From: Lentisphaerae bacterium GWF2_38_69
Lineage (GTDB): Bacteria; Verrucomicrobiota; Lentisphaeria; Victivallales; GWF2-38-69
Direction of reading: 5' to 3'
Assembly: GCA_001803205.1 (NCBI GenBank)
Contig: MHBE01000032.1
Location: 25,441 to 89,440, forward strand
DNA length: 64,000 nt
Positions 49,047 through 62,694 of this stretch are shown here, one piece after another. Under the pieces are notes generated by a model, which saw nothing but the letters and a program-made list of their open reading frames with translations, ran no database searches and was not told where the DNA came from. Both the position numbers and the translations under genes were made by a program. The first letter of the stretch is position 1, and each line of letters starts with the position of its first letter.

Positions 49047-50765
49047 TTAGAAACAAGGCATGGGATATTTTGCAATGAAAGTTTTAACTTCTAAAGCAAT
49101 TTTTGCAAGTTCTAACTCATTATCCATAGCTCCTACTGCCCTATCAATCCATTTAGCTATTACTGCCATATCTTCTTCTTTAAGTCCTCTTGTGGTAATT
49201 GCAGGAGTCCCGATTCTTATTCCGCTTGTAACAAATGGTTTTTCCGGGTCAAATGGAATCATGTTCTTATTAACTGTTATTCCGGCCTTGTCTAAAGCTA
49301 TTCCTACAGCTTTACCTGTAGCTTTCTTAGGTCTTAAATCAACCAGCATAAGATGATTGTCGGTTCCTCCAGAAACAATTCTAAAGCCGCAATCAGTAAG
49401 TCCTTTGGAAAGACTCTTTGCATTTGTTATAACTTGTTTCTGATAATTTTTAAATTCCGCTGACATTGCTTCATGGAGGCATACTGCTTTAGCGGCAATG
49501 ACATGCATTAAAGGGCCTCCCTGCATTCCAGGAAATACTTTTGAATTGACATCTTTTATATATTTTCCCTTACAAAGAATAAGTCCGCCTCTTGGGCCTC
49601 TTAGAGATTTGTGGGTCGTCGTCGTAACAATATCTGCGTAAGGAACAGGACTAGGGTGTAATCCTGCTGCGACTAATCCTGCGATATGAGCCATATCTAC
49701 AAAGAGTTTTGCTCCTACTTTATCTGCAATTGAACGCATCCTGGCAAAGTCGATTATTCTTGGATATGCACTTGCTCCTGCAAGAAGCATTTTAGGTTTA
49801 TGCTCCAGAGCAAGTTCTTCGAGATGTTCATAATCGATTGTTTCGGTCTCTTTAGAAACTCCGTAAGGGACAATTTTATAGAACATTCCGCTAAAATTAA
49901 GAGGGTGCCCATGGGTAAGATGTCCGCCATGCGCAAGATCCATGGAAAGAACTGTGTCTCCAGGAGAGACTAATGTATAGTAGGCCGCCATATTTGCCTG
50001 GCTTCCTGAATGAGGCTGTACATTTGCAGCTTCAGCTCCAAAAAGTTTGCAGGCTCTTTCTATAGCAAGACTTTCTACTTTATCAACAAATTCACATCCG
50101 CTATAATATCTTTTTGCAGGATAACCTTCTGCGTATTTATTGGTAAGTACGCTTCCCTGGGCTGCTCTAACAGCTGTGCTCGCAAAATTTTCAGATGCTA
50201 TTAGTTCAATGCCGTCGGTTTGTCTTCTGTTTTCCTCATCTATGAAAGAGGCTATTTCAGGATCAACAGATCTTACTGCAGCTATTTCGTCGTAAGAATT
50301 TTCTTCTATCTTTTCAATCCTTTTTAAATGGCGGGCTTCTTTGGAGAATGGGGTTTCCAGCCATATTTTGCAAAGATCAAGGGCTTTTTCCTTATTTATA
50401 TAATCTGCAGGAAGAACAAGCACATTAGAGCAGTTATGTTCTCTGCTTTTTGTCGCAAATCCTTCATTGGAACAAAGAGCTGCCCTTACATAGTTGAAAC
50501 GATTAGCATTAATAGTCATGCCTACACCGCTTCTGCATATAAGAATTCCCCTTTCATTTAGTCCGAGAGAAATTCTCTTTGCGAGAGATGATGCGTAATC
50601 GCAATAATCATCTTGAGGGTCAAATGACCTAGGACCAATATCATTTATTTTATAGCCTTCTTCCTGAAGTTTTTTTACTAGAAAATCTTTCATTTCCAGC
50701 CCACCATGATCCGTCGAAATCAAAATTTCCTTGCTCTTATCCATACAATCTTCAATCTTTTTCAT
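49047..50765 (-). CDS. glyA: fusion protein: ribose-5-phosphate isomerase B (N-terminal ~150 aa) + serine hydroxymethyltransferase
   Basis: The RpiB/LacAB part has ISTDHGG and [14 protein letters not shown]. The SHMT part has [16 protein letters not shown] and the PLP-lysine motif [14 protein letters not shown]. It is a single uninterrupted 572-aa frame. Confidence 0.85.
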
Positions 50766-51266: not shown

Positions 51267-54200
51267 TCATTCCAGGTGCAACATTCTCCAGACTCTGTAG
51301 AATTCGGTGGATCCCCAGGCCTGAGCATCGCAACCTTTTTGCTTGTGAGGGTAACTGCCGTCAACTATTTCAGGAAGATGCCCAAGGCAGCCAAGATTGA
51401 ATAAGTAGGAAGAAGATGAAAGAACACTGACTGCGTGAGCTAGTCCTCTATGTCCATAAACCTTGTAGTATGCTTCAGAATATGAAGGAAATGTCCAAGT
51501 CCATGCTGTGCCATTATGATATGCAACTTTACGCTGCGTATCTTCATTTCCGGAATAATAATGGCAATATGGTGAAAAAGGATCGTTAAGAAGCTTGTTA
51601 TTATTATCATACACAGGCAACTGAAATCGTACTGTTCTGTCTGCAAGACTTCTTATGGCTCCAGGCACAAGAAGATCGTAGGAAACATCGAGAATGCTCT
51701 TTGACAGTTCGATTTCTCCGTCAAGAGCGCCAAGAGTTATGGCGAAAAGCTGGTTATTTCGGATATGGTCGTCTGCTTCAGCCTCAGCAGCAGGCTTAAA
51801 TCCATCACAGTGCAGGCAGTCAGAAAGATATTTTCGGCCTGTTTTCTGACCTATTGTATTATAATAATCTATAATGAAATATTTATATATAGAATCTTTT
51901 ACTTGTCTGGCTTTTACTTCCCAGTCATGTTTACCACTACAGTCAATTTCAGATAGGAAATTTAAAGAAAAATACCAGAGAGCCTGTATTTCTATAGGAT
52001 ACCCTTCCCTAGGAGTGCCAGCTGGGTAATTCGTATCCATCCATGTGAAGTGAGGAGGACTGTATACGAGCATTGAATCAGCATCAACTCTTATACCGTT
52101 TTGAGTTCCATCAATATAGTTGATAGCTATTGATTTCAGCGCATCAAAAAGAGTTTTTTCTCCATTTACCTTTTCAGATAAAATAGAATCATCTCCGGCA
52201 ATTTTCAGGTAGTCGCTGCATCCTACAAAAAACCATAGCTGAGCATCAGAAGTATCTCGATTCCCTACAATTTCTCCATGAATAATATTAGGAAGAGTTC
52301 CATTTTCTTCATATTTGCCAAATTGAAGAAGAATTTTCCTTACATCATCTTTAAATCCTGCGCTAAGCAGTCCTCTAACGCAAATCAGAGTATCTCTGCC
52401 CCAATCTGTAAACCATGGATACCCTGCAATAACTGTTTTAAGTGCATCGCGCTTTACGACATATTTCTTAATTGTTCTGGGCAGAAGATGGTTTACTGAG
52501 TTATCTGATGCTTCAAGAAGATATTTGAAATTAATATATATCTGAGTTTCAATTTCATCATTATCCTCCTGGGTCAGGAAATTTGATCTGATTTCAGATT
52601 CTTCTCCTCCAAAAATATCAATATGGAAGAATCCTGGACTGTAGAGATCGGATGTCCATTGCATTCCTCTGTCGCGTTCAACTTCATGTTCGATATTATA
52701 TAAAAACTCTGAGGCTCTTTTGAAAACGCCTTTTGTTGTAAATATTTTGAGTTTTCTTTCCTGTACTGGTTTAAAAATAAAACTCTTTATATTGCAGGTA
52801 ACTGAATTTTCCCATTTATTTCTAATGTCTTCATCAATTTTAGTATCGGCATGGAAACCTCTGTCTTCAATATCAGGCCTTATAATCAGATGGATTTGTT
52901 CTTGATCTGAAACATAAGAAGAAGCTTTTAGCAAAGGATGTCTATAGAGATAGAGGGAGACTGAGTTATTGTAATTGTGCATGATTACAGCCAAGCTGAT
53001 ATCCACATAAAGACTATTGCCCACAGGCGCATGGAAAGTCCATGTCCCGCCTCCGTCAACATTTAATTTGAAGCTTTCAAGGTTATCTATATTTAGTTCG
53101 ACTGATCTTCCCTGATGTTGCACCCATGCTCTGAATCTTGTCAGCATGATATGCCTGTCTACAGGGACATCAGAATTGGGATTAGCAGCAAGAAATGCTT
53201 CATATTTTGAATTTATTTTATTCCATTCCAAAGCTATATGGGACATACCTCCTCTTGAATTAGTATCAAGAAATGTCCCTGAAAAATTCCTTATTTCCTT
53301 GTTTGTCAGAGTAGTCTTCAGCATATGAACATCCGTTGCCAGATAAATAATTTCAGAAGTACTTCTTATTGTTTTTCCCTGTCCATAAACTGAAATTGTA
53401 AATTTATGCTTTTTATGGTCATTAAGTTTGAGCTTGGGTGGAGTGATTATAAAGAAATATTCTCCATTTGAACATCTGTGGCTTCCCCTATACTGAAGGA
53501 CTTTTTTATCATTTCCAAGTGTAAATCTGAATCTATGGGGAGCTTTGATTATGACAAGGTGGTTTGGAGGGACGATAAAAGATCTGCTAGAATCATTAGG
53601 CCATGTCCAATGAACCATTGGAACAGGTTCATCTTTATCAAAAAGGGATTGTGTAAAGTGCTCGGGATCATTTAAATATTTTGTTTCAATGCCATTTATA
53701 TCTAACCCGGAAATTACAATTGTCTCATTTCTCCATCTGAGAAGATCCAAAGCGCTTGCCCTGCCTCTTTGAAGCTCAATACCGTCTGGAACTAGTATGT
53801 TTTTCATTTCCGATTCTTTTACTTTTATAAAATCATCTTTGTTTGGACAGAGACAATAGACATCGCCAGGTTTCAAGTTGACTACAGAATATGTTCCCAA
53901 AGGAGTTTCAGAAATCATGTCTAATAAGAAATCACTTTCCAGTTCTTGAAGATTGAATTCACTCAAATCGACTAAGAGCGAAGATTTACAGTCCAAATTT
54001 ATTAGAATAAGAAGTTTAGATTTAGCCAGCCTGGAACTTCTGATAAATATCAATAGCGAATCTTTCTCAGAGGCAATGAATTTTATCGTAGAGTCTCTGT
54101 AAAATGCTTTATGAGATATAAGGATAGCATTTATTCTTCTGATAAAAGCATTCTGGTTTTCTCTCGATCCCCAATTTAGAGCTGACGCTTCATGAACATC

Positions 54201-55619
54201 GATTTTTTCTTTGGCAAACCATTCGACTCCGTTTGTAAATCCGAATCCGCCGTTATCTGAGAGAAGAGCGCATAATCCAGTTCTCATTCTTGCATAAGTA
54301 TTTGATGTAGCAGCAAGTCTTGCATTGTCATGAGTCTCAGCATAATGAACCATTATTCCGTCTGACTGGCTTGTTTTATGAGCTATTTTTGAAATATAAT
54401 CCTGAATTTGCCATTTTGTGTAGTTTTGGAAAAGTTCCGAATAAGCCCAGTTCATATTGGCTCTGTTAAGTAGATCTACAGTTATTTTGGGATCGCCTCC
54501 AAGTCCTTCAAGGAGGAAAATCGTATCAGGATATTCGTTTCTGACTTTTGCAATTATATAAAGCCATGCTTCATATGGTATCATGTATCCTGCATCACAT
54601 CTGAAGCCATCGACTCCGCGGGAGGACCATGTAAGAAACATTTCTGCAAGATATTCCCATAGTTCAGGGTGAATGTGGTTAAGCTCTGTAAGATCACCCC
54701 ATGTAACGCCCCATGCGCCTGGAGATATTATTTTCCCGTCTGCTTCTCTAAGAAGCCATTCAGGATGTTCTTCATGAAGTTTTGCTGCCCATCCTACATG
54801 ATTTATAGCTACATCAATAATCAGTTTTGCATTTCTTTTGTGAATGGCATCAACAAGTTCGATAAACTGTTCTAGAGGAGTCGCTTTCTTGTCAAATTCA
54901 GCCAAAGAAGGATCTATATCAGTAAAATCCAAAGAGGCATAAGGACTTCCGTATCTTCCCATTCTGGCAAAAACCGTAGGGGTGGGATTAATTGGAAGTA
55001 AATGTATAATTCTACAGTTTAGGTTTTCTATAATAAAATCAAGTTCTTTAATAAGATCCCTAAAAGTTCCTGAAGGAGGAATTATGGTAAAATTATATTT
55101 ATCATATTTACTCATTTCCTCTATAGTAAACCCATTTATAGGCTTTGATTTAGAATAGTATTTATTCGGACCGAATTGTCTGGGAAACGCACAATAGATG
55201 CTATTTGCACAACAGTATTCTGCAGGTTCTACATTTACAGAAACATTGCCTCCTATAGGCCATATTGCATCTGTTTCATTTTCAGGTATAAAAAAGGTAA
55301 TTGCTTCGAAGTGTCCCACTTCAACGAGTGCAAGATGAATATTATATTCTTTTTCGTTAAGCGGGATCATAGGAATATCATACCAGTCCTGACCGCATAA
55401 AGGTTTTTCATCTTTTACACGATGTATAATTTCTTTGCGTTTAACAGAAGCTCTTCCGATATTAGTCCTTAGGAATGCTCTTCCATCATAATGCTGGTCT
55501 AAGGTAAGTCTAAATAGAATACTATCTCCTCTGAAATAGAGTTTATGCTCTCCTGTGTTAGGGCTCTGGGTTAATCGAACCATTTTCCCTCCTGAAATAG
55601 TTTGCAATCTTGTATACAA
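51267..55619 (-). CDS. 1450-aa glycogen-debranching-type enzyme: GH13 alpha-amylase-family (GlgE-like) N-terminal half fused to amylo-alpha-1,6-glucosidase (GDE_C/GH133-like) C-terminal domain
   Basis: The GH13 regions are IIDVAINH (I), GVDGFRCDAGY (II), FLLEGLGG (III) and HYAETHDN (IV). HLLPINP, GSPYA and HPEW resemble the GlgE-type subfamily. The C-terminal third has GYPWFTDWGRDT and an (alpha/alpha)6-type tail ending in AQAWGSTE. Confidence 0.75.
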   Translation of the reverse strand: MYTRLQTISGGKMVRLTQSPNTGEHKLYFRGDSILFRLTLDQHYDGRAFLRTNIGRASVKRKEIIHRVKDEKPLCGQDWYDIPMIPLNEKEYNIHLALVEVGHFEAITFFIPENETDAIWPIGGNVSVNVEPAEYCCANSIYCAFPRQFGPNKYYSKSKPINGFTIEEMSKYDKYNFTIIPPSGTFRDLIKELDFIIENLNCRIIHLLPINPTPTVFARMGRYGSPYASLDFTDIDPSLAEFDKKATPLEQFIELVDAIHKRNAKLIIDVAINHVGWAAKLHEEHPEWLLREADGKIISPGAWGVTWGDLTELNHIHPELWEYLAEMFLTWSSRGVDGFRCDAGYMIPYEAWLYIIAKVRNEYPDTIFLLEGLGGDPKITVDLLNRANMNWAYSELFQNYTKWQIQDYISKIAHKTSQSDGIMVHYAETHDNARLAATSNTYARMRTGLCALLSDNGGFGFTNGVEWFAKEKIDVHEASALNWGSRENQNAFIRRINAILISHKAFYRDSTIKFIASEKDSLLIFIRSSRLAKSKLLILINLDCKSSLLVDLSEFNLQELESDFLLDMISETPLGTYSVVNLKPGDVYCLCPNKDDFIKVKESEMKNILVPDGIELQRGRASALDLLRWRNETIVISGLDINGIETKYLNDPEHFTQSLFDKDEPVPMVHWTWPNDSSRSFIVPPNHLVIIKAPHRFRFTLGNDKKVLQYRGSHRCSNGEYFFIITPPKLKLNDHKKHKFTISVYGQGKTIRSTSEIIYLATDVHMLKTTLTNKEIRNFSGTFLDTNSRGGMSHIALEWNKINSKYEAFLAANPNSDVPVDRHIMLTRFRAWVQHQGRSVELNIDNLESFKLNVDGGGTWTFHAPVGNSLYVDISLAVIMHNYNNSVSLYLYRHPLLKASSYVSDQEQIHLIIRPDIEDRGFHADTKIDEDIRNKWENSVTCNIKSFIFKPVQERKLKIFTTKGVFKRASEFLYNIEHEVERDRGMQWTSDLYSPGFFHIDIFGGEESEIRSNFLTQEDNDEIETQIYINFKYLLEASDNSVNHLLPRTIKKYVVKRDALKTVIAGYPWFTDWGRDTLICVRGLLSAGFKDDVRKILLQFGKYEENGTLPNIIHGEIVGNRDTSDAQLWFFVGCSDYLKIAGDDSILSEKVNGEKTLFDALKSIAINYIDGTQNGIRVDADSMLVYSPPHFTWMDTNYPAGTPREGYPIEIQALWYFSLNFLSEIDCSGKHDWEVKARQVKDSIYKYFIIDYYNTIGQKTGRKYLSDCLHCDGFKPAAEAEADDHIRNNQLFAITLGALDGEIELSKSILDVSYDLLVPGAIRSLADRTVRFQLPVYDNNNKLLNDPFSPYCHYYSGNEDTQRKVAYHNGTAWTWTFPSYSEAYYKVYGHRGLAHAVSVLSSSSYLFNLGCLGHLPEIVDGSYPHKQKGCDAQAWGSTEFYRVWRMLHLE

Positions 55620-55669
55620 ATTACAGATTATAGCTTGAGCTTCAATAAAATAAATTGCCCTTTGCTTTT

Positions 55670-57334
55670 ATGAATAGATATATTAAGAATTTTCTTTCAA
55701 TAGGATTTTTTACAAGTTTTATTGTTCTTTTTTTGTTTATATACTATCCGGCACTAGGAAAAATATCATTAAATAAAGGATTTGAACAGAAAGATAAAAA
55801 AAATGAAGATTCAACTTTTGTTCTAAAAGGTTATGCTCCTGAAGAAAGTAAATGGATAGAATTTAAAATTCCTGCTGCTTCCAGGCGCATAAAGATTACA
55901 TCGAATGCAACTTTTTATTTCAATCCAAGAGAAAAATCATTTCCATACTCAATAAACTACGAAATACTTGATAAGTCAGGGAATATTCTCCTTTCAAATA
56001 CTTATTTTCAGTTAGGAAAAATTAATTTGTACAAGGGAAAAGGCTCAAATAGGATTTTATCTGAACCCTTTTTAATAGACGGAAATGCTTATTTAACAAA
56101 AAATAGCGACATCGTTATTCCCTTGCAGAAAATAAACAATGCTGTTGTATTGAAAGTAAGATGGATCAAATCAGATGCTTTTTCCGGAAAAATTATAATC
56201 AGAGCTTCAAAAATGAATGAATTTTCAGAAAAAAAACATGAAAGCTATTGGATGAGGATAACTGAAGGGAAAAAGAAAGAATTAGCCCAGAACAGCATTT
56301 TCCCTTTTCAAGAATTAAAAACTGAAGAAATTGAGAATATTCTTTCTTCGAAATGGAAATATTTAACGCTGATTCCAAAAGAAGAGAATGTGAATTATGG
56401 ATGCAGGATAGGAACAATCCCTAGAATTGCATTAAAGCTATTGCGCATTTCCAGAGTTCAAATGGACAGCTCTGAGGATAAAAAAATAAAATCTGAAATT
56501 TTCAGACTCTATCTGCAAAGTGCAGGAGGAGTATTTAAAATCCCTAGCCTGAAAAATATAAAAAAAGCTGAGGCTCTTTTTCAAGATATTTTTAATCAAA
56601 ATAAAATCACAAATGAAACAATAAATAAATTTGCAGAACTTGGGTTTGACCTGAAAGAAATAAAGAAGAAAAATAATTATTACATAGTTGTTCATGAAAA
56701 AGAAGGCCATAAACAAGGGAAAGGATTCTATATTTTCTGCAGGAATTCGAAAATTAAAAACTGCTCTCTCGAAATCCCGCATAGATTTTTTGATGATCAA
56801 ACCGGCATAATCGGTTTCAAAATGTTAGTCACTGGAAATTTTTCTGCTGCTGCATGGAATACTGTCCACAGATACCAGACACCAAACAATATGACCGGTT
56901 CTTCAGATATGGCTCATAACAAACGATCTTATTTTCACGCATTTACTCAAGCGTTCAGAAAAAGCAATGATGCTAATGTCCTGCTTCAATTGCATGGCTT
57001 TAATGGACATAGGCATAATTTAGGAAAAGATTTTCCCTGTGTAATTCTTAGTGAGGGGAAAAATGAATCTAATGTTAAATTCCTTGATCTCAGCAATATC
57101 ATAAAATCTATAATTAAAATACCTGTATTTATATATCCTATTGACAATAAAATAGAAGAATTATCAGCGCAGGGGAATATTGCTGCTGCAGATTTTCTGA
57201 AATCGAAAACGCAAAAGATTTTTGTACATTTCGAAATGAATAAACTCTTAAGAGATAAATTTATAGCTGATAAAGCGTTTCTAAAATATTTTTCAATTAC
57301 CTTGAATAATGCTGCAGGAAAAATTAATGAATAA
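55670..57334 (+). CDS. membrane-anchored protein of unknown function; C-terminal region with possible zinc-amidohydrolase (PghP-like) motif spacing
   Basis: The start is ATG at 55670 (the TTG at 55655 is also in frame). Has an N-terminal TM FLSIGFFTSFIVLFLFIYY. The C-terminal motifs are IPHRFFDDQTG ... DMAHNKRSYF ... LLQLHGF, spaced about 38 and 22 aa apart. This spacing is reminiscent of the H-x4-E ... H(I/V)TS ... HG zinc-site pattern of poly-gamma-glutamate hydrolase PghP. The evidence is weak and pattern-level only. Confidence 0.35.
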   Translation: MNRYIKNFLSIGFFTSFIVLFLFIYYPALGKISLNKGFEQKDKKNEDSTFVLKGYAPEESKWIEFKIPAASRRIKITSNATFYFNPREKSFPYSINYEILDKSGNILLSNTYFQLGKINLYKGKGSNRILSEPFLIDGNAYLTKNSDIVIPLQKINNAVVLKVRWIKSDAFSGKIIIRASKMNEFSEKKHESYWMRITEGKKKELAQNSIFPFQELKTEEIENILSSKWKYLTLIPKEENVNYGCRIGTIPRIALKLLRISRVQMDSSEDKKIKSEIFRLYLQSAGGVFKIPSLKNIKKAEALFQDIFNQNKITNETINKFAELGFDLKEIKKKNNYYIVVHEKEGHKQGKGFYIFCRNSKIKNCSLEIPHRFFDDQTGIIGFKMLVTGNFSAAAWNTVHRYQTPNNMTGSSDMAHNKRSYFHAFTQAFRKSNDANVLLQLHGFNGHRHNLGKDFPCVILSEGKNESNVKFLDLSNIIKSIIKIPVFIYPIDNKIEELSAQGNIAAADFLKSKTQKIFVHFEMNKLLRDKFIADKAFLKYFSITLNNAAGKINE

Positions 57335-60300
57335 CGAATTAATTTTTAACTTCAAAAAAAGCCAGCCTCTCATATGGTACTGCCTTTCTGCCAAAGAACT
57401 GAAAATTATTAAAAAAATAAAACCTGAAAAATTAGAAAAGTATTTGACAGAGATAGTCAAAGATAGCTCTGATTCAAAAAAAATATCCTTCGTATTCAGA
57501 TTTATCCCTTCCATCCAAAATTTTCCAAACCATGATGCATTTATTCTGAAAGGAATTAATCTGCTTAACAACTCAAAATCTATTAGGATTAAATCTAGTG
57601 TACTATACTACCTTACTAAGGTTAACTTAAATAACTTTCATTCATTTCTTTTGACAAATACTTTTGCAGCGCTGATACTTGACAATACTAATAATTTCCA
57701 ACTTGCCTTCATGGCACTTGTCCTTTTGAAAAATATCGATGCCGATCGATTCTTAAAGGTTTGCGGCAAAATTTTGCTCATTGACGAAACTAAGATGATT
57801 TTTCACAAGAAGAAAGTTGCGTCTTTGCTGATGGATATGCATTTGAACAATAAATACGCGACAGAAATGCTTGAACAGCTTTTTAATGAAAACATTCCTT
57901 TTGTTCAGAAGGGAATAGCCGAAAATTTACATCTTCTGAACAATCATAATGAAATTTTGAAATGGTTAAACAGAATTTATTCAGAATCTGAAAATGGCGT
58001 AATTTGTACTGCAATAAGAAGCATTTTATCAGTACATGTTTCTGATGGTAATTTTAAAGCAATTCTGAATATTCTGAAAAAAACCAACACTGAAGTTCAG
58101 TTATTTAGCATTGAAACACTGACTGAATTTTTCATTAGATTAAAAAAATCAGATAAAGAACGATTCTTTATATTACTTGAAGCGGCAGTCCCATTGATGG
58201 AAGAGCTCTTCGAAAAAACCAGCAACGATTCTGTCTGCAAGGCATTGAAGCTGTCATTGGAGAGGCTTTGGATTGAAACCAATGATTCAGCTTCAGAAAT
58301 ATTTTTAAAACTTAAAAATTTACTCAAAAAAAAGAGAAGAACCAAAAAAATAGAAATTCCGCTTCATCTCATCTCTTCCTGTAATGAAGAAACTTTAGGC
58401 AGGGTTTTAGCTGTAATAGCGCAGGAAGATTTTTGCATTCAACTTATAAAATCAGTTTTCGGGAAATTTTATTTGGTCAAAGATGCTTTTTTCAAATTCA
58501 GGTTATGGAGGTTTTTACACGAATTAAGACATTCATCTACTTCAAAAAGACAGAGCTGGAAAAACACTGTAGGCAGACATTTTATCGGGAGAAACAGGGC
58601 GGCATCGTCAATATTAGCTGAACAAGCTAAGACAGATGTTCCTGGAGAAAACATTTTAAATGACAGCATACCAGCTTCAATTCCTATGATAGATGATTTT
58701 ATTTCCGCTTCGGAATCATCCGAAGATTATAAAATATTTTCACCTGAAGGAATAACAATAATAAAGCCGCCAGAGAGCATATTTAAAAAGCTCTATGCCG
58801 AATTAAATGTCGCATGGAATTTCAATAAACTCTCAAATTTGAGAAATTCAGCTGAAAATTCTTATATTTGCAGTTTCAGAAAACTTGGATTTCAAGTTAA
58901 TATTGTGCCTTATTCCTCTGACAAAATATTTTCTTCCTTGCCAGGCCGGCTCTCAAAAAAATTATTCTCCGTATCTTTCGTTTTCCCTTCCATGCTAAAT
59001 AGCTACATTGATGATTTAAAAACTTACTTTATCTCATTGTATTCAAATTCCATCAGAGAACTTGCATTGTTCTTATCAGCTTTTATAGCATGTTTCATTG
59101 TTAGGCACCTAATAGTAAATGCGCTTTATAAATATTACAGAACATCTTTTCTGCTATGCATCGGGGGATGGGGCACAAGAGGAAAGTCCAGTGTAGAAAG
59201 GATGAAAACAGCGCTTTTTGCATATCAGGGATGTAATGTTATAAGTAAAACTACCGGAAGCGAAGCCGCCTTTACTTATTCAGTTAATAATGAAAAGCCA
59301 ATATCAGTTCCTATCTTCAGGCCTTACGGGAAGGCAACAATATGGGAGCAGCTCAAATTCACCAGATTAGCTTCAAAAGTGAATGCTGAGATTTTTCTTT
59401 GGGAATGTATGGCCATATCTCCAAAGTATGTCAAAATAATGCAGCATTCATGGCTTCATGACAACTACTCAACAATTACTAATACATATCCTGACCATGA
59501 AGATCATCAAGGACCAGCAGGATGGAATGTAGCCGAAACCATGGCTAATTTCGTGCCCGATAAAGGAATGCTGCTTACAACTGAAACACAGATGTATCCG
59601 TTCCTGAAAGATGAATGCGAAAAGAATAATAGTTCATTTGTAAAAATAAGCGGGAATGAAAATGTGCTTATAACATCGGACATACTCGGACTTTTCCCTT
59701 ATAAAGAACACCCTTCAAATATATCTCTTGTTTTAAAACTGGCAAATGAATTGGGTATTGATGGAGATGTGGCTCTTAAAGGAATAATAGATACAGTTAA
59801 ACCAGATATAGGGGCTTTAAAAGAATATAATCCAGTGATAGCAAACGGCAAAAAAATTACATTTATATCAGGGATGTCAGCAAATGAAAAAACTGCCTGC
59901 ATTTATAACTGGAATGCATTACAGATGAATACCTTTCAAAAAAATACTTTGAGGGCAGTATTAATAAATAATAGAGCTGATAGACCCTCAAGATCAAAAA
60001 TTTTTGCAGATCTAATAGCAAATGCCGAATTGGATTGCGATAAATACTTTCTTATAGGCAGTAATCTTGATTCATTTCTTTCCCATGTGAGAAAGTTATG
60101 CCATAATAAAGAGGAACTCCTGAAAAAATTTGTCGTTATACATGATTACCATATACATCCTGCAAAACTTTTTGAACTTTTTGAATCACATATTCCGGAA
60201 GGATGGTCCATGAAAATAATGGGTATTCAGAATATAAAAGGTGTCGGAATAAATATTTGCCGATGGCTTGAAAATCCTGATGATTATTGTTCCTGTGCAA

Positions 60301-60455
60301 GAAGAACAAGATATTTTGCTTTTATAACAGATTTTTTCGATCCAATTTTTATGATTTTTAAAAAAAGCAGAGCTAACTCTATTTATAGAAGTCTTGTAAA
60401 AGGAAAAGTAAGTCCGGCTTATGCAATAAAAAAACTTGATGAACTGAGCTCATAA
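57309..60455 (+). CDS. 1048-aa fusion: N-terminal ~590-aa helical-repeat (HEAT/ARM-like) region + TM + PgsB/CapB-like Mur-ligase-fold amide ligase
   Basis: The C-terminal ~450 aa is collinear with B. subtilis PgsB as I recall it. GGWGTRGKSSVERM matches NGIRGKSTVTRL. SKTTGSEAAFTY matches GKTTGTDARMIY. WECMAISPKY matches SECMAVNPDY. NTYPDHEDHQGP matches NVLEDHMDVMGP. KPDIGAL matches PPDPGAM. INNRADRPSRS matches MNCRADRVDRT. A TM segment (LALFLSAFIACFIV) precedes it, as in PgsB. Its start overlaps the upstream gene by 26 nt. Confidence 0.6.
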   Translation: MLQEKLMNNELIFNFKKSQPLIWYCLSAKELKIIKKIKPEKLEKYLTEIVKDSSDSKKISFVFRFIPSIQNFPNHDAFILKGINLLNNSKSIRIKSSVLYYLTKVNLNNFHSFLLTNTFAALILDNTNNFQLAFMALVLLKNIDADRFLKVCGKILLIDETKMIFHKKKVASLLMDMHLNNKYATEMLEQLFNENIPFVQKGIAENLHLLNNHNEILKWLNRIYSESENGVICTAIRSILSVHVSDGNFKAILNILKKTNTEVQLFSIETLTEFFIRLKKSDKERFFILLEAAVPLMEELFEKTSNDSVCKALKLSLERLWIETNDSASEIFLKLKNLLKKKRRTKKIEIPLHLISSCNEETLGRVLAVIAQEDFCIQLIKSVFGKFYLVKDAFFKFRLWRFLHELRHSSTSKRQSWKNTVGRHFIGRNRAASSILAEQAKTDVPGENILNDSIPASIPMIDDFISASESSEDYKIFSPEGITIIKPPESIFKKLYAELNVAWNFNKLSNLRNSAENSYICSFRKLGFQVNIVPYSSDKIFSSLPGRLSKKLFSVSFVFPSMLNSYIDDLKTYFISLYSNSIRELALFLSAFIACFIVRHLIVNALYKYYRTSFLLCIGGWGTRGKSSVERMKTALFAYQGCNVISKTTGSEAAFTYSVNNEKPISVPIFRPYGKATIWEQLKFTRLASKVNAEIFLWECMAISPKYVKIMQHSWLHDNYSTITNTYPDHEDHQGPAGWNVAETMANFVPDKGMLLTTETQMYPFLKDECEKNNSSFVKISGNENVLITSDILGLFPYKEHPSNISLVLKLANELGIDGDVALKGIIDTVKPDIGALKEYNPVIANGKKITFISGMSANEKTACIYNWNALQMNTFQKNTLRAVLINNRADRPSRSKIFADLIANAELDCDKYFLIGSNLDSFLSHVRKLCHNKEELLKKFVVIHDYHIHPAKLFELFESHIPEGWSMKIMGIQNIKGVGINICRWLENPDDYCSCARRTRYFAFITDFFDPIFMIFKKSRANSIYRSLVKGKVSPAYAIKKLDELSS

Positions 60456-60519: not shown

Positions 60520-61275
60520 ATGAAGTCATTTTTTCTTCAAAAAAATAAAATCTATTTTCTACTCCTGCTTTCTATCATATTTTTAAAAAGTACTGCTTTA
60601 TTAGCTTATGATAGTGATACAGTTAAAATACTTAATCCTAAACAGTCCCAGATTATAAAAGAATATATTTCTGCGATACAGAAATTTGATCGGTTGATTG
60701 ATTATGAACCAAATAATTCTGAAGCATATGCCAAAAGGGCATTATGCAAAGATCTGATAGGTGACTGGAAAGGAGCTATTGAGGATTACAGCACTGCTTC
60801 TAAACTTGATCCAAAAAAAGCTGAAGGATATCTGCTTGCAATTGGATCCATTAACAACAAATTAGGCAATTTTTCCGAAGCAGTACATTCATATGACAAG
60901 GCTATTGCTTTAAATCAGAAAAATTCTGCTGCTTATTTTCTCAGAGGAGCCTCTAAACAGCTTCTCAGGAATTACAAAGGAGCTATTGAGGATTATGATA
61001 AAGCTATTGAACTCTTTCCACAATTTACACAGGCGTATAGCGCAAAGGGAACTGTTCTGCTTGAAGAAAAAGATCTGTTAAAAGCTATTTCTGACTTCGA
61101 TAAAGCAATCAAAATAAATCCGAATTATGCTAAAGCCTATTATGGAAAAGGATTGGCAGAGGAACGATTAGATAGGAAAAAAGACGCTTTGCAAGATTTT
61201 ACAAAAGCTTTTGAGTTAGGCTTTCCTCCAGCAGGCGCTAAATTGAAAGATTTAAAAACCGATTCATCAAAATAA
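60520..61275 (+). CDS. secreted TPR-repeat protein
   Basis: Has a signal-like N-terminus (IYFLLLLSIIFLKSTALLA) and about 5 TPR units with recurring A.(Y/F)..(R/K)(A/G)......(Y/W)KGAIEDY(D/S)KAI.L.P. Confidence 0.85.
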   Translation: MKSFFLQKNKIYFLLLLSIIFLKSTALLAYDSDTVKILNPKQSQIIKEYISAIQKFDRLIDYEPNNSEAYAKRALCKDLIGDWKGAIEDYSTASKLDPKKAEGYLLAIGSINNKLGNFSEAVHSYDKAIALNQKNSAAYFLRGASKQLLRNYKGAIEDYDKAIELFPQFTQAYSAKGTVLLEEKDLLKAISDFDKAIKINPNYAKAYYGKGLAEERLDRKKDALQDFTKAFELGFPPAGAKLKDLKTDSSK

Positions 61276-61278
61276 AAA

Positions 61279-61306
61279 TGGTGGTCCCGACTGGACTCGA
61301 ACCAGT
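61279..61306 (-). other. truncated tRNA 3-prime end (T arm + acceptor + CCA only): putative att site of an integrative element
   Basis: The minus strand reads ACTGG-TTCGAGT-CCAGT-CGGGACC-A-CCA, which is a perfect T stem-loop, the 3-prime acceptor strand, the discriminator and CCA. The complementary 5-prime acceptor strand GGTCCCG and the D/anticodon arms are absent from the next ~80 nt. Confidence 0.6.
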
Positions 61307-61333
61307 GTATTTTGTATCTGTATAACTTCATTT

Positions 61334-61413: not shown

Positions 61414-62694
61414 ATGGTGGTATTTATGGCAACTGATAAAAAGAATCTCAAGAAAATTAGAGATGTCTTCTACCTTAGAACTAAAGTTGACGGGAAAGAA
61501 ATATTAAAGTCTCTTGGAGTCAGAACGCTTGCAGAAGCTAAAACCAAGAGAGATGAATTCTTGTCAGGAGCAAGAGATGTTAAAACTCAGTCAGATGTTA
61601 TTTATAAAGTAGCAAGAGCAAAGAAAATTTATCAACCAAAGAAATTCCTAATAGAAAATATTATACCTGAATTCAGAACCTCTCTTGAAACGGCTAAGAG
61701 CAAACCAGGCGAACCTCTTCTGAATATGTATTGCTACTGGATTAAAGAGTTTCAGAATTGGCTCCATCAAAATGACTCTCCTATTAAGTATCTATCTGAA
61801 ATCAATACAGATATTGCAAAGAAATATGCAAAAAACCTATATCACAGCAATATCAGTCCGAAAACCTACAATGAGAAAATAAATTGCCTTGCCAGAATGT
61901 TTAAGCTGATAAATGGATCAGTTAATACACCTTTTGACGAAAAAGACGAAAGCGGCAATACAAATATTGAACGGCTTAATAAAGAAACAGTATCTAGGGA
62001 AGTTTTCACAAGAGAGGACGCCATTAGGATATTAAACAGCTTCAATGAAATAAATATCCCTTTCAGGAATGAATATGAGCTTCTTTTTTATCTCGGAGCT
62101 TATACCGGAATGAGACTAAAAGACTGTGCTTTATTGCTATGGGATAAAGTAAATTTTGCAGCAAATAATATTACAACCAGACCTTATAAGACTCAGAAAC
62201 ATAATATTGAAGTGCAAGTACCAATGCACCCAAATTTAAGGGCAAAGCTAATTACTGCAAACAACCCTGAAAATCAATATGTGATGCAGAATCTAGCAGA
62301 AACATATCTCAGGAACCCAAAGGCAGTAGGCAAAGTTATAAGCAGGATATTGGAGCTTAACGGCCTTACAAATCCAAAGGTGGAAAATAAAAAATCTCCT
62401 TGCTTATATGGTTTTCACTCATGGAGATATTTCTTCTCAAGCATATGCGCAGAACAAGGGATTCCTCTTGATGTAGTTAAAAACCTTGTAGGCCACATGA
62501 ACGAGGCTATGACTAGAAGTTACACTAAAATCTCAGATAATAAATTTCATCAGCAGGAGATTGCTAAGTTTCAAATCACGGAACCCACACCAGAACAGGA
62601 CTCACTCAAAAAAACGCTTCTGAAGAGGCTGGAAACGCTTCCAGATTCAACCTTAAGTCAAGTATTAAAACTTCTTGATACGATTGAGGCATAG
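61414..62694 (+). CDS. int: tyrosine recombinase / phage-type integrase
   Basis: The C-terminal catalytic pattern is GMRLKD (Arg I), GFHSWRYFF (HxxR) and LVGHMNEAMTRSYTK (His...Tyr). An alternative start is the ATG at 61426. Confidence 0.85.
   Translation: MVVFMATDKKNLKKIRDVFYLRTKVDGKEILKSLGVRTLAEAKTKRDEFLSGARDVKTQSDVIYKVARAKKIYQPKKFLIENIIPEFRTSLETAKSKPGEPLLNMYCYWIKEFQNWLHQNDSPIKYLSEINTDIAKKYAKNLYHSNISPKTYNEKINCLARMFKLINGSVNTPFDEKDESGNTNIERLNKETVSREVFTREDAIRILNSFNEINIPFRNEYELLFYLGAYTGMRLKDCALLLWDKVNFAANNITTRPYKTQKHNIEVQVPMHPNLRAKLITANNPENQYVMQNLAETYLRNPKAVGKVISRILELNGLTNPKVENKKSPCLYGFHSWRYFFSSICAEQGIPLDVVKNLVGHMNEAMTRSYTKISDNKFHQQEIAKFQITEPTPEQDSLKKTLLKRLETLPDSTLSQVLKLLDTIEA

Follow-up and report, generated by a model that had tools for sequence, protein, structure and literature searches.

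A HEAT-like PgsB fusion and a zinc-hydrolase-like partner in Lentisphaerae bacterium GWF2_38_69 as probable components of a split polyamide synthase

Nearly all understanding of poly-gamma-glutamate (PGA) synthesis comes from Bacillus PgsBCAE, and little is known of the process in Gram-negative bacteria. A locus of Lentisphaerae bacterium GWF2_38_69 raises the question of what a PgsB-type amide ligase does when no gene for its partner PgsC lies beside it. The locus consists of two genes, here called A and B, in a stretch of 64,000 nucleotides (nt) of contig MHBE01000032.1 (positions 25,441 to 89,440 of the forward strand; the whole stretch is referred to as the window, and coordinates are those of the window). 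Gene B encodes a long protein in which a PgsB-type domain follows an extended N-terminal region, and gene A, immediately upstream, encodes an N-terminally anchored protein with a zinc-hydrolase-like C-terminal domain. A preliminary description of the sequence had regarded B as an orphan; its observations were confirmed in part and its interpretation was supported in part. We consider it probable that A and B supply two of three core parts of a polyamide synthase of the PgsB/PgsC type. This synthase would be a compact, genomically split representative of a large and so far uncharacterised family of oversized enzymes found in Gram-negative bacteria.

The PgsB-type ligase and its PgsC-type partner

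The open reading frame (ORF) list gives two plus-strand ORFs, A then B, at the positions first described. Gene A occupies 55655..57334 and encodes 559 amino acids (aa) from TTG 55655 or 554 aa from ATG 55670. The latter is the likelier start because homologues of A begin at MNRYIKK, which corresponds to ATG 55670. Gene B, the HEAT-like/PgsB fusion, occupies 57309..60455 and encodes 1048 aa, or 1042 aa from ATG 57327. The database copy of B (P0001) has 1042 aa, fitting a start at ATG 57327, and AGGA is found 8 nt upstream of this codon. The two genes overlap by 26 nt, as had been claimed, or by 8 nt with the later start of B; with either value translational coupling is plausible, and the overlapping stop and start suggest both coupling and a fixed stoichiometry of the two proteins.

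Residues 590-984 of B (59076..60260, plus strand) form a PgsB-type ATP-dependent amide-ligase domain. B matched TIGR04012, the PgsB equivalog model, with 241.4 bits (cut-off 222.7, E 1.3e-71) over profile positions 4-377 of 380, and this was its sole NCBIfam match at E ≤ 0.1. The same model was matched by 25 of 25 members of the B family, with no other NCBIfam model at E ≤ 1e-3. B had no Pfam match at E ≤ 0.1, Mur_ligase included, and the 25 relatives were likewise without Pfam Mur_ligase. A PDB sequence search, made with B itself and with the family profile, gave no match to the ligase part.

The six motifs from which the PgsB assignment had been drawn are all in B: GTRGKSS (622-628, the P-loop, 59172-59192), KTTGSEA (647-653), ECMAISPKY (699-707), DHEDHQGP (729-736), PDIGA (832-836) and NNRADR (887-892). 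Residues of the catalytic blocks are invariant over the 25 family members (alignment A3). FolC, MurC-F and cyanophycin synthetase had been named as competing identities for this domain; they were rejected, as no such model, nor one for FPGS or Mpl, matches B or its 25 relatives and TIGR04012 alone does. On two points the original view is upheld: B is an amide ligase of the PgsB type extended at its N-terminus by a long helical-repeat region, and it is coupled to the upstream gene.

A single short hydrophobic helix (residues 585-603, LALFLSAFIACFIV-RH-LIV; 59061..59117, plus strand) precedes the P-loop, as had been noted. It consists of 14-16 hydrophobic residues followed by a conserved Arg-His and is the sole conserved hydrophobic segment of the family, lying approximately 15-40 residues before the P-loop in nearly all of the 25 members. 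PgsB of B. subtilis depends on its first 21 residues both for its location at the membrane and for production of PGA, and its ligase domain is cytoplasmic and requires the N-terminal helix (PMC7490850). Judging from its position, we take the helix of B to be the counterpart of this membrane anchor. By sequence, the PgsB-type ATP-dependent amide-ligase domain of B is complete and stands behind a short, putatively membrane-anchoring helix.

Searched by tblastn with three CapC fusions (E ≤ 1), the 64-kb window showed no CapC-like sequence, so that the reported absence of an adjacent pgsC stands. The term orphan does not, since the PgsC partner is encoded elsewhere in the same genome bin, on a contig of equal abundance. 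This partner is a 658-aa protein in which CapC is duplicated in tandem and fused to an extension. The bin in which it lies totals 3.2 Mb.

The window is wholly contained in the groundwater metagenome runs X1 and X2 and in the 3.2-Mb genome-bin run X3. The 658-aa CapC fusion (P0184; PF14102 in precomputed annotation) is encoded on scaffold L107, whose record name, ANAN16-1, suggests a groundwater assembly. A contig of 26,344 nt from X3 covers the CapC-fusion locus (L107:7000-11000) with zero differences. Sequencing depth at the CapC-fusion and A-B loci was 48.4 and 48.7, respectively, in X3, and 51.2 and 50.9 in X1. A close homologue of P0184, the CapC fusion of locus L016, matched PF14102 at 6.7e-36 in two stretches. 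The window's own contig (322,012) gave no CapC-fusion match and the partner is therefore not on that contig.

The relatives of the window show the same separation, with the 658-aa tandem-CapC fusion at its own locus beside a DUF2760 gene and two HSP70-like genes. An A homologue (P0011) and a CapC fusion (P0182) of these relatives occur in the same metagenome assemblies (GCA_005795915.1 and ERZ27300137), a link at the level of the assembly rather than of one metagenome-assembled genome (MAG), and both also occur in runs of neighbouring accession numbers, with a longest contig of 279,359 for both. Comparison of the Victivallales chromosome locus L016 with the window (tblastx) revealed no shared genes.

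Without exception in the bin of the window and in the relatives, the DUF2760 gene and the two HSP70-like genes, one of which has DUF3731, come after the 658-aa tandem-CapC gene. This arrangement of the CapC gene and a chaperone-like trio lies at L107 8001-15392, L097 6001-13361 and L016 10004-17340.

Gene neighbourhoods and taxonomic spread

The A-B pair might have been taken for a one-off; it belongs instead, in a compact and split form, to a family that is large and conserved. When 1.84 billion representatives were searched exhaustively with HMMER, 1694 relatives of B were found at E ≤ 1e-3 and 450 at E ≤ 1e-30. The best 150 are mostly 1250-1580 aa in length and share the layout of HEAT region, middle region, helix and PgsB domain, with a longer C-terminal part. 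B of the window is a compact form; on our reading of the consensus of alignment A3, it has kept both conserved C-terminal blocks. Where the sources give a name, family members are called either 'hypothetical protein' or 'PgsB/CapB'.

The nearest relatives are on Lentisphaerota/Victivallales metagenome contigs and show 47-58% identity. Their synteny is that of the window (debranching enzyme, low-molecular-weight phosphatase, a fusion of ribose-5-phosphate isomerase B and serine hydroxymethyltransferase (RpiB-SHMT), A and B), and they have no pgsC near A-B either. In more distant Victivallales there is a three-gene operon encoding a CapC-domain protein of 900-1040 aa, a homologue of A and a B homologue of 1270-1370 aa. 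Proteobacteria, and most of the other non-Victivallales lineages examined, have the order CapC fusion, A_N (approximately 830 aa), A_C (approximately 310 aa), a stretch of approximately 5 kb and B, A being represented by two separate proteins. The extra 5 kb between A_C and B is coding (L003 1155-6665; L048 16501-21848). In L003 it encodes protein X, which has 1836 aa, a signal peptide and no Pfam match, and for which no counterpart was found in the window (tblastn).

Linkage of these genes is tight. Among loci with enough flanking sequence, A_N was present in 51 of 54, A_C in 44 of 47 and B in 32 of 37. No neighbourhood with Pfam listings contained PgsA (PGA_cap, PF09587), a check confined to those neighbourhoods. 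When one genome per GTDB species was scanned with an alignment of the CapC fusion, the fusion was found in 247 species genomes. Hosts include Victivallales, Thiotrichaceae, Parabeggiatoa, Thiomargarita, Methylococcaceae, Thiodiazotropha (MAGs from lucinid clams), Legionella yabuuchiae and L. impletisoli, as well as Desulfocicer vacuolatum DSM 3385 and Desulfobacter latus (both cultured), Sulfidibacter corallicola, Mariprofundus, Sulfurovum and a Verrucomicrobiota MAG. At a broader level, large sulfur bacteria and Desulfobacterota are represented.

A 14-kb contig of a Magnetococcales MAG encodes a B homologue of 1475 aa (L002 4443-8870) without A or the CapC fusion, which may be another split arrangement.

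Protein A, the N-terminal regions of B and the flanking genes

Protein A has 23 homologues of approximately 550 aa, none with a known family. A itself has no Pfam or NCBIfam match, no significant Pfam family emerged for 22 members scanned at E ≤ 10, and a PDB sequence search with the A profile gave no match. In the AlphaFold2 (AF2) model of the full-length protein (predicted local distance difference test, pLDDT, 75), a helix at the N-terminus is followed by a beta-sandwich (55-187), then by a helical linker and finally by an alpha/beta domain. The hydrophobic stretch of the N-terminal helix (residues 12-31; 55688..55747, plus strand; AF2 helix 3-30) is a probable signal anchor. The bulk of A is presumably periplasmic, because the split homologue A_N, protein X of L003 and the short homologues P0026-28 have starts that, by eye, resemble signal peptides.

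The beta-sandwich, which is jelly-roll-like (residues approximately 55-187; 55817..56215, plus strand), corresponds to the N-terminal part of the separate proteobacterial A_N, as positions 1-250 of the A profile match the A_N ORFs of approximately 830 aa. Foldseek searches with the full-length model were dominated by this domain and gave weak jelly-roll, GOLD and lectin-like matches.

The C-terminal alpha/beta domain (residues 281-559; 56495..57331, plus strand) has a predicted zinc-carboxypeptidase-type fold. Modelled alone it reached a pLDDT of 87 and a predicted template-modelling (TM) score, pTM, of 0.89. Foldseek matches in the PDB include the DapE catalytic domain (2e-5), the M14-like 3l2n (3.8e-5) and, as fifth best, the PGA hydrolase YndL/PghL with PGA (5onj_A; E 1.4e-4, probability 1.00, TM-score 0.38 by query and 0.50 by target, root-mean-square deviation 5.9). 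DapE and M14 structures match as well as or better than 5onj, so the resemblance concerns the fold class only. Further PDB matches are REP34, procarboxypeptidase A2, an aspartoacylase-family protein, the cytosolic carboxypeptidase CCP5 and 2odf (Atu2144); the entries matched at fold level under M14 are 3l2n, 1aye and 4oko. Matches in BFVD are zinc carboxypeptidase, lysins and AstE/AspA.

Nine residues (P375, H376, D380, Q445, H447, G448, N508, E527 and R533) do not vary among 55 distinct sequences from several phyla, and N402, R406 and D418 are nearly invariant. H376 (56780-56782), D380 (56792-56794) and H447 (56993-56995) are putative metal ligands and E527 (57233-57235) is a putative catalytic residue, all on the plus strand; in the AF2 model H376/D380, H447 and E527 each stand at or just past the end of a predicted strand. 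In carboxypeptidase A, zinc ligands and catalytic Glu follow in the order H69-x2-E72 ... H196 ... E270. The order in A is the same: strand-His-x-x-x-acid, strand-His, strand-Glu. N402 and R406 could bind a carboxylate.

The upstream protein had been thought to carry a hydrolase motif reminiscent of PghP. A His/Asp set is indeed present; its spacing is H376-x3-D380 ... H447-G ... E527 and not the H-x4-D first reported. The zinc-metallohydrolase-type fold is borne out by the AF2 model, with YndL among its top matches. Membership of the PghP family (PF05908) is not: A has no Pfam match at E ≤ 0.1, and the best E for this family was 0.25, with one of 22 members matching at E ≤ 10. Model and conservation support an active metallohydrolase, and assignment to PF05908 or M14 is not supported. 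The long CapC fusions include a paralogous copy of the domain's first half that has lost the PH..D motif (hhalign probability 91%), and the 658-aa CapC fusion is without this copy.

Two further regions of B precede the helix. Residues 1 to approximately 360 (57309..58388, plus strand) form an alpha-helical repeat region that is probably a diverged HEAT-like repeat. The evidence is at the level of the family: HEAT_2 (PF13646) matched 16 of 25 relatives (best 2.9e-17), HEAT (PF02985) matched 10 of 25, and the family profile matched alphaRep/HEAT chains of the PDB at 2.7e-11. The helical repeats of the first description are thus recovered in the family and not in the window's own sequence, whose N-terminal 590 aa or so have no Pfam match, HEAT included (E ≤ 0.1). 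The middle region (residues 397-560, FRLWRFL...; 58497..58988, plus strand) belongs to no known family and is without known relatives, and is better conserved than the repeats. Its invariant columns in alignment A3 are W400, R401, E405, K413, R414, E438, P445, E447, P459, G481, R512, Y519 and F553.

A gene for a TPR protein (60520..61275, plus strand; Pfam TPR_1 1e-30) adjoins B. Both the gene and its hydrophobic, signal-like N-terminus are as first described. It was rejected as a component of the module, its position not being kept in the syntenic relatives; in L001 and L005 an opposite-strand cytidylate kinase gene stands after B in its place.

On the other side of gene A, and divergent to it, is a gene for an amylase/debranching protein of 1450 aa (51267-55619, minus strand) with an alpha-amylase catalytic domain, GDE_N and GDE_C (amylo-alpha-1,6-glucosidase). 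The two starts are approximately 35-85 bp apart and the arrangement is kept in relatives. Beyond it, the RpiB-SHMT fusion (572 aa, 49047-50765, minus strand; LacAB_rpiB and serine hydroxymethyltransferase) is approximately 84% identical in L001 and L005.

Just past the TPR gene is the 3' end of a tRNA (61276-61307, minus strand; reverse complement CACTGGTTCGAGTCCAGTCGGGACCACCA), which was not called by ARAGORN. Contigs of runs X1 and X3 branch exactly at this fragment, with one 34-mer at double depth, and a tyrosine integrase gene (61414-62694) is next. Together the fragment and the integrase have the appearance of an integrative element inserted at a tRNA gene, the fragment being one att repeat; the remainder of the window to 64000 may be part of that element.

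Proposed function and comparison with known systems

Our best reading is that A and B, with the CapC fusion, belong to a PgsA-independent synthase for a gamma-glutamyl-type polyamide that has a dedicated processing hydrolase. The analysis shows which domains the proteins have, how they are conserved, how the genes are linked and that they are found together in one bin. For substrate, product, activity of A and topology we infer the following scheme. B would activate the gamma-carboxyl of glutamate (or of a related amino acid) with ATP at the cytoplasmic face and extend a polyamide chain. Its short helix would insert beside the membrane domain of the CapC fusion, which has approximately 9-10 hydrophobic segments and through which the chain would exit. 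A, anchored by its N-terminal helix and with its domains in the periplasm, would bind the emerging polymer with the beta-sandwich, and its zinc-hydrolase-like domain would cut, trim or release the polymer in a manner analogous to PgdS/PghP, or to CapD if it acts by transfer. PgsA would have no part in this. Passage of the polymer across the outer envelope may, in proteobacteria, be the task of the additional giant exported protein.

Several points weigh against this proposal. X3 is a metagenome bin and not a closed genome, and the equal depth of the two loci supports one genome without being proof of it. The sample's one metatranscriptome (X4) has no contigs on the A-B locus. A has no Pfam or NCBIfam family and its structural matches are at fold level only, with TM-scores of 0.35-0.50. 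In the literature found, no product is reported for any family member. Furthermore, the PgsB score of B is only about 19 bits over the cut-off, which indicates a deep sister clade whose substrate specificity could differ.

The arrangement of B itself presents a further difficulty. One short helix separates an N-terminal region of approximately 570 residues, which has no signal peptide, from the ATP-dependent domain, and this is hard to reconcile with a simple transmembrane topology: a helix that crossed the membrane would place the HEAT and middle regions outside. More probably the helix is re-entrant or half-spanning, with the regions on both sides of it cytoplasmic.

The alternative that survives best, though we consider it unlikely, keeps the machinery and changes the chemistry: the amide-linked product would not be free PGA but another amino acid polymer, a mixed polymer or gamma-glutamyl chains on an envelope acceptor, and A would be a transferase or trimming enzyme. 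The narrow margin of the PgsB score is in keeping with this, as are the parts peculiar to the family (the HEAT region, the 397-560 region, the duplication of CapC with its extension of approximately 300-700 aa, and protein X) and the lack of PgsA in every neighbourhood with Pfam-listed called genes. Set against these, both core proteins match PGA-specific models alone (TIGR04012 and PF14102), all conserved PgsB blocks are kept, and there is no positive evidence for another substrate.

Less probable still is that A acts outside the polymer pathway, as a structural or scaffolding protein of the periplasm, or as a peptidoglycan-acting enzyme (amidase or carboxypeptidase) by which the wall is opened for the machine. 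Structural matches to CwlV (1jwq), to a Bacillus phage lysin and to a peptidoglycan hydrolase would fit the latter role, and the part-copy of the A domain without PH..D in the CapC fusions of most lineages means that non-catalytic use of the fold exists. However, the putative metal-binding and catalytic set is invariant in all 55 sequences across phyla, and A is tightly linked to the synthase genes, as the counts for A_C and A_N (44 of 47 and 51 of 54 loci) attest.

That A and B are remnants without PgsC, or that B alone is a soluble or peripheral FolC-like small-molecule ligase, is very improbable: the window has no pgsC or pgsA within its 64 kb and its B is approximately 300 aa shorter than typical family members, but the decaying paralogue was rejected, being largely refuted by the CapC fusion at equal depth in the same bin and by intact genes of equal length in the same split arrangement in several divergent lineages at 47-58% identity, while A and B keep all family-invariant residues, the shortening of B takes out variable linkers and not conserved blocks (again on our reading of the A3 consensus), and no FolC or Mur model matches.

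For the proposed PgsA-independent synthase, a more far-reaching version can be put forward tentatively, as a possibility to which we give clearly less weight. It would be an undescribed envelope-spanning machine of diderms, in which an anionic polyamide is made and exported without PgsA by a giant PgsB with a HEAT scaffold, a channel protein of tandem PgsC, a dedicated new periplasmic zinc hydrolase family and, in proteobacteria, an exported protein of approximately 1750 aa; its product, or the attachment of the product, may differ from Bacillus gamma-PGA.

The PgsB and PgsC cores are already known and some pipelines annotate them as such, and no description of the HEAT-PgsB fusion, the tandem-CapC fusion, protein A or their operon was found in the literature. 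The locus points to a conserved, taxonomically broad system in which the PgsB/PgsC cores are kept and PgsA is replaced by new components, among them a new zinc-hydrolase-like protein family with an invariant, catalytic-looking residue set. As several hosts are cultured, the system is directly testable, and structural studies of the PgsB-PgsC interface may be easier with the larger fused proteins. A lesson for annotation is that a pgsB without an adjacent pgsC is not necessarily an orphan.

Among known hydrolases, PghP/PghL (YndL) resembles the model of the A C-terminal domain at the level of the alpha/beta zinc-peptidase fold class, and the gene context of A is PGA-type. The zinc site of PghP is His/Glu/His. 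A differs in its motif (H-x3-D ... H ... E), in being membrane-anchored, in its additional beta-sandwich and in being encoded with a synthase rather than by a phage. M14 and its relatives (carboxypeptidase A, MpaA, CCP5, AstE/AspA and N-formylglutamate amidohydrolase-like proteins) have the same fold class, and several M14-type enzymes and relatives cleave gamma-glutamyl bonds. A has no Pfam match to PF00246, PF04952 or PF05013, and in contrast to M14 it has H-x3-D in place of H-x2-E, with TM-scores of only 0.35-0.43.

Compared with Bacillus PgsBCA(E)/CapBCA(E), B has all PgsB blocks and the anchoring helix just before the P-loop, and its partner has CapC domains (PF14102). PgsB and PgsC are the minimal synthetase in B. 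subtilis, where pgsBC without pgsA suffices for PGA production and PgsA is dispensable (PMC6029982). In contrast to the Bacillus proteins, B has approximately 590 extra N-terminal residues, with the HEAT-like region and the conserved middle region, and CapC is tandem-duplicated and fused to an extension of 300-700 aa. Neither PgsA/CapA nor PgsE is found in the annotated neighbourhoods, and there are new partners: A in all lineages and the exported protein of approximately 1750 aa in proteobacteria. The hosts are diderm and, in the genome of the window, the genes are split over two loci.

CapB-CapC-PgsF operons have been described in Gram-negative producers in a 2025 preprint on Cloacimonadota (doi 10.1101/2025.11.11.687785). 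The proteins there are ordinary CapB-like and CapC-like proteins together with PgsF, and the preprint mentions no HEAT fusion or tandem CapC. Those operons and the family described here are alike in that PGA-type synthase genes are carried by diderms without a Bacillus-like PgsA.

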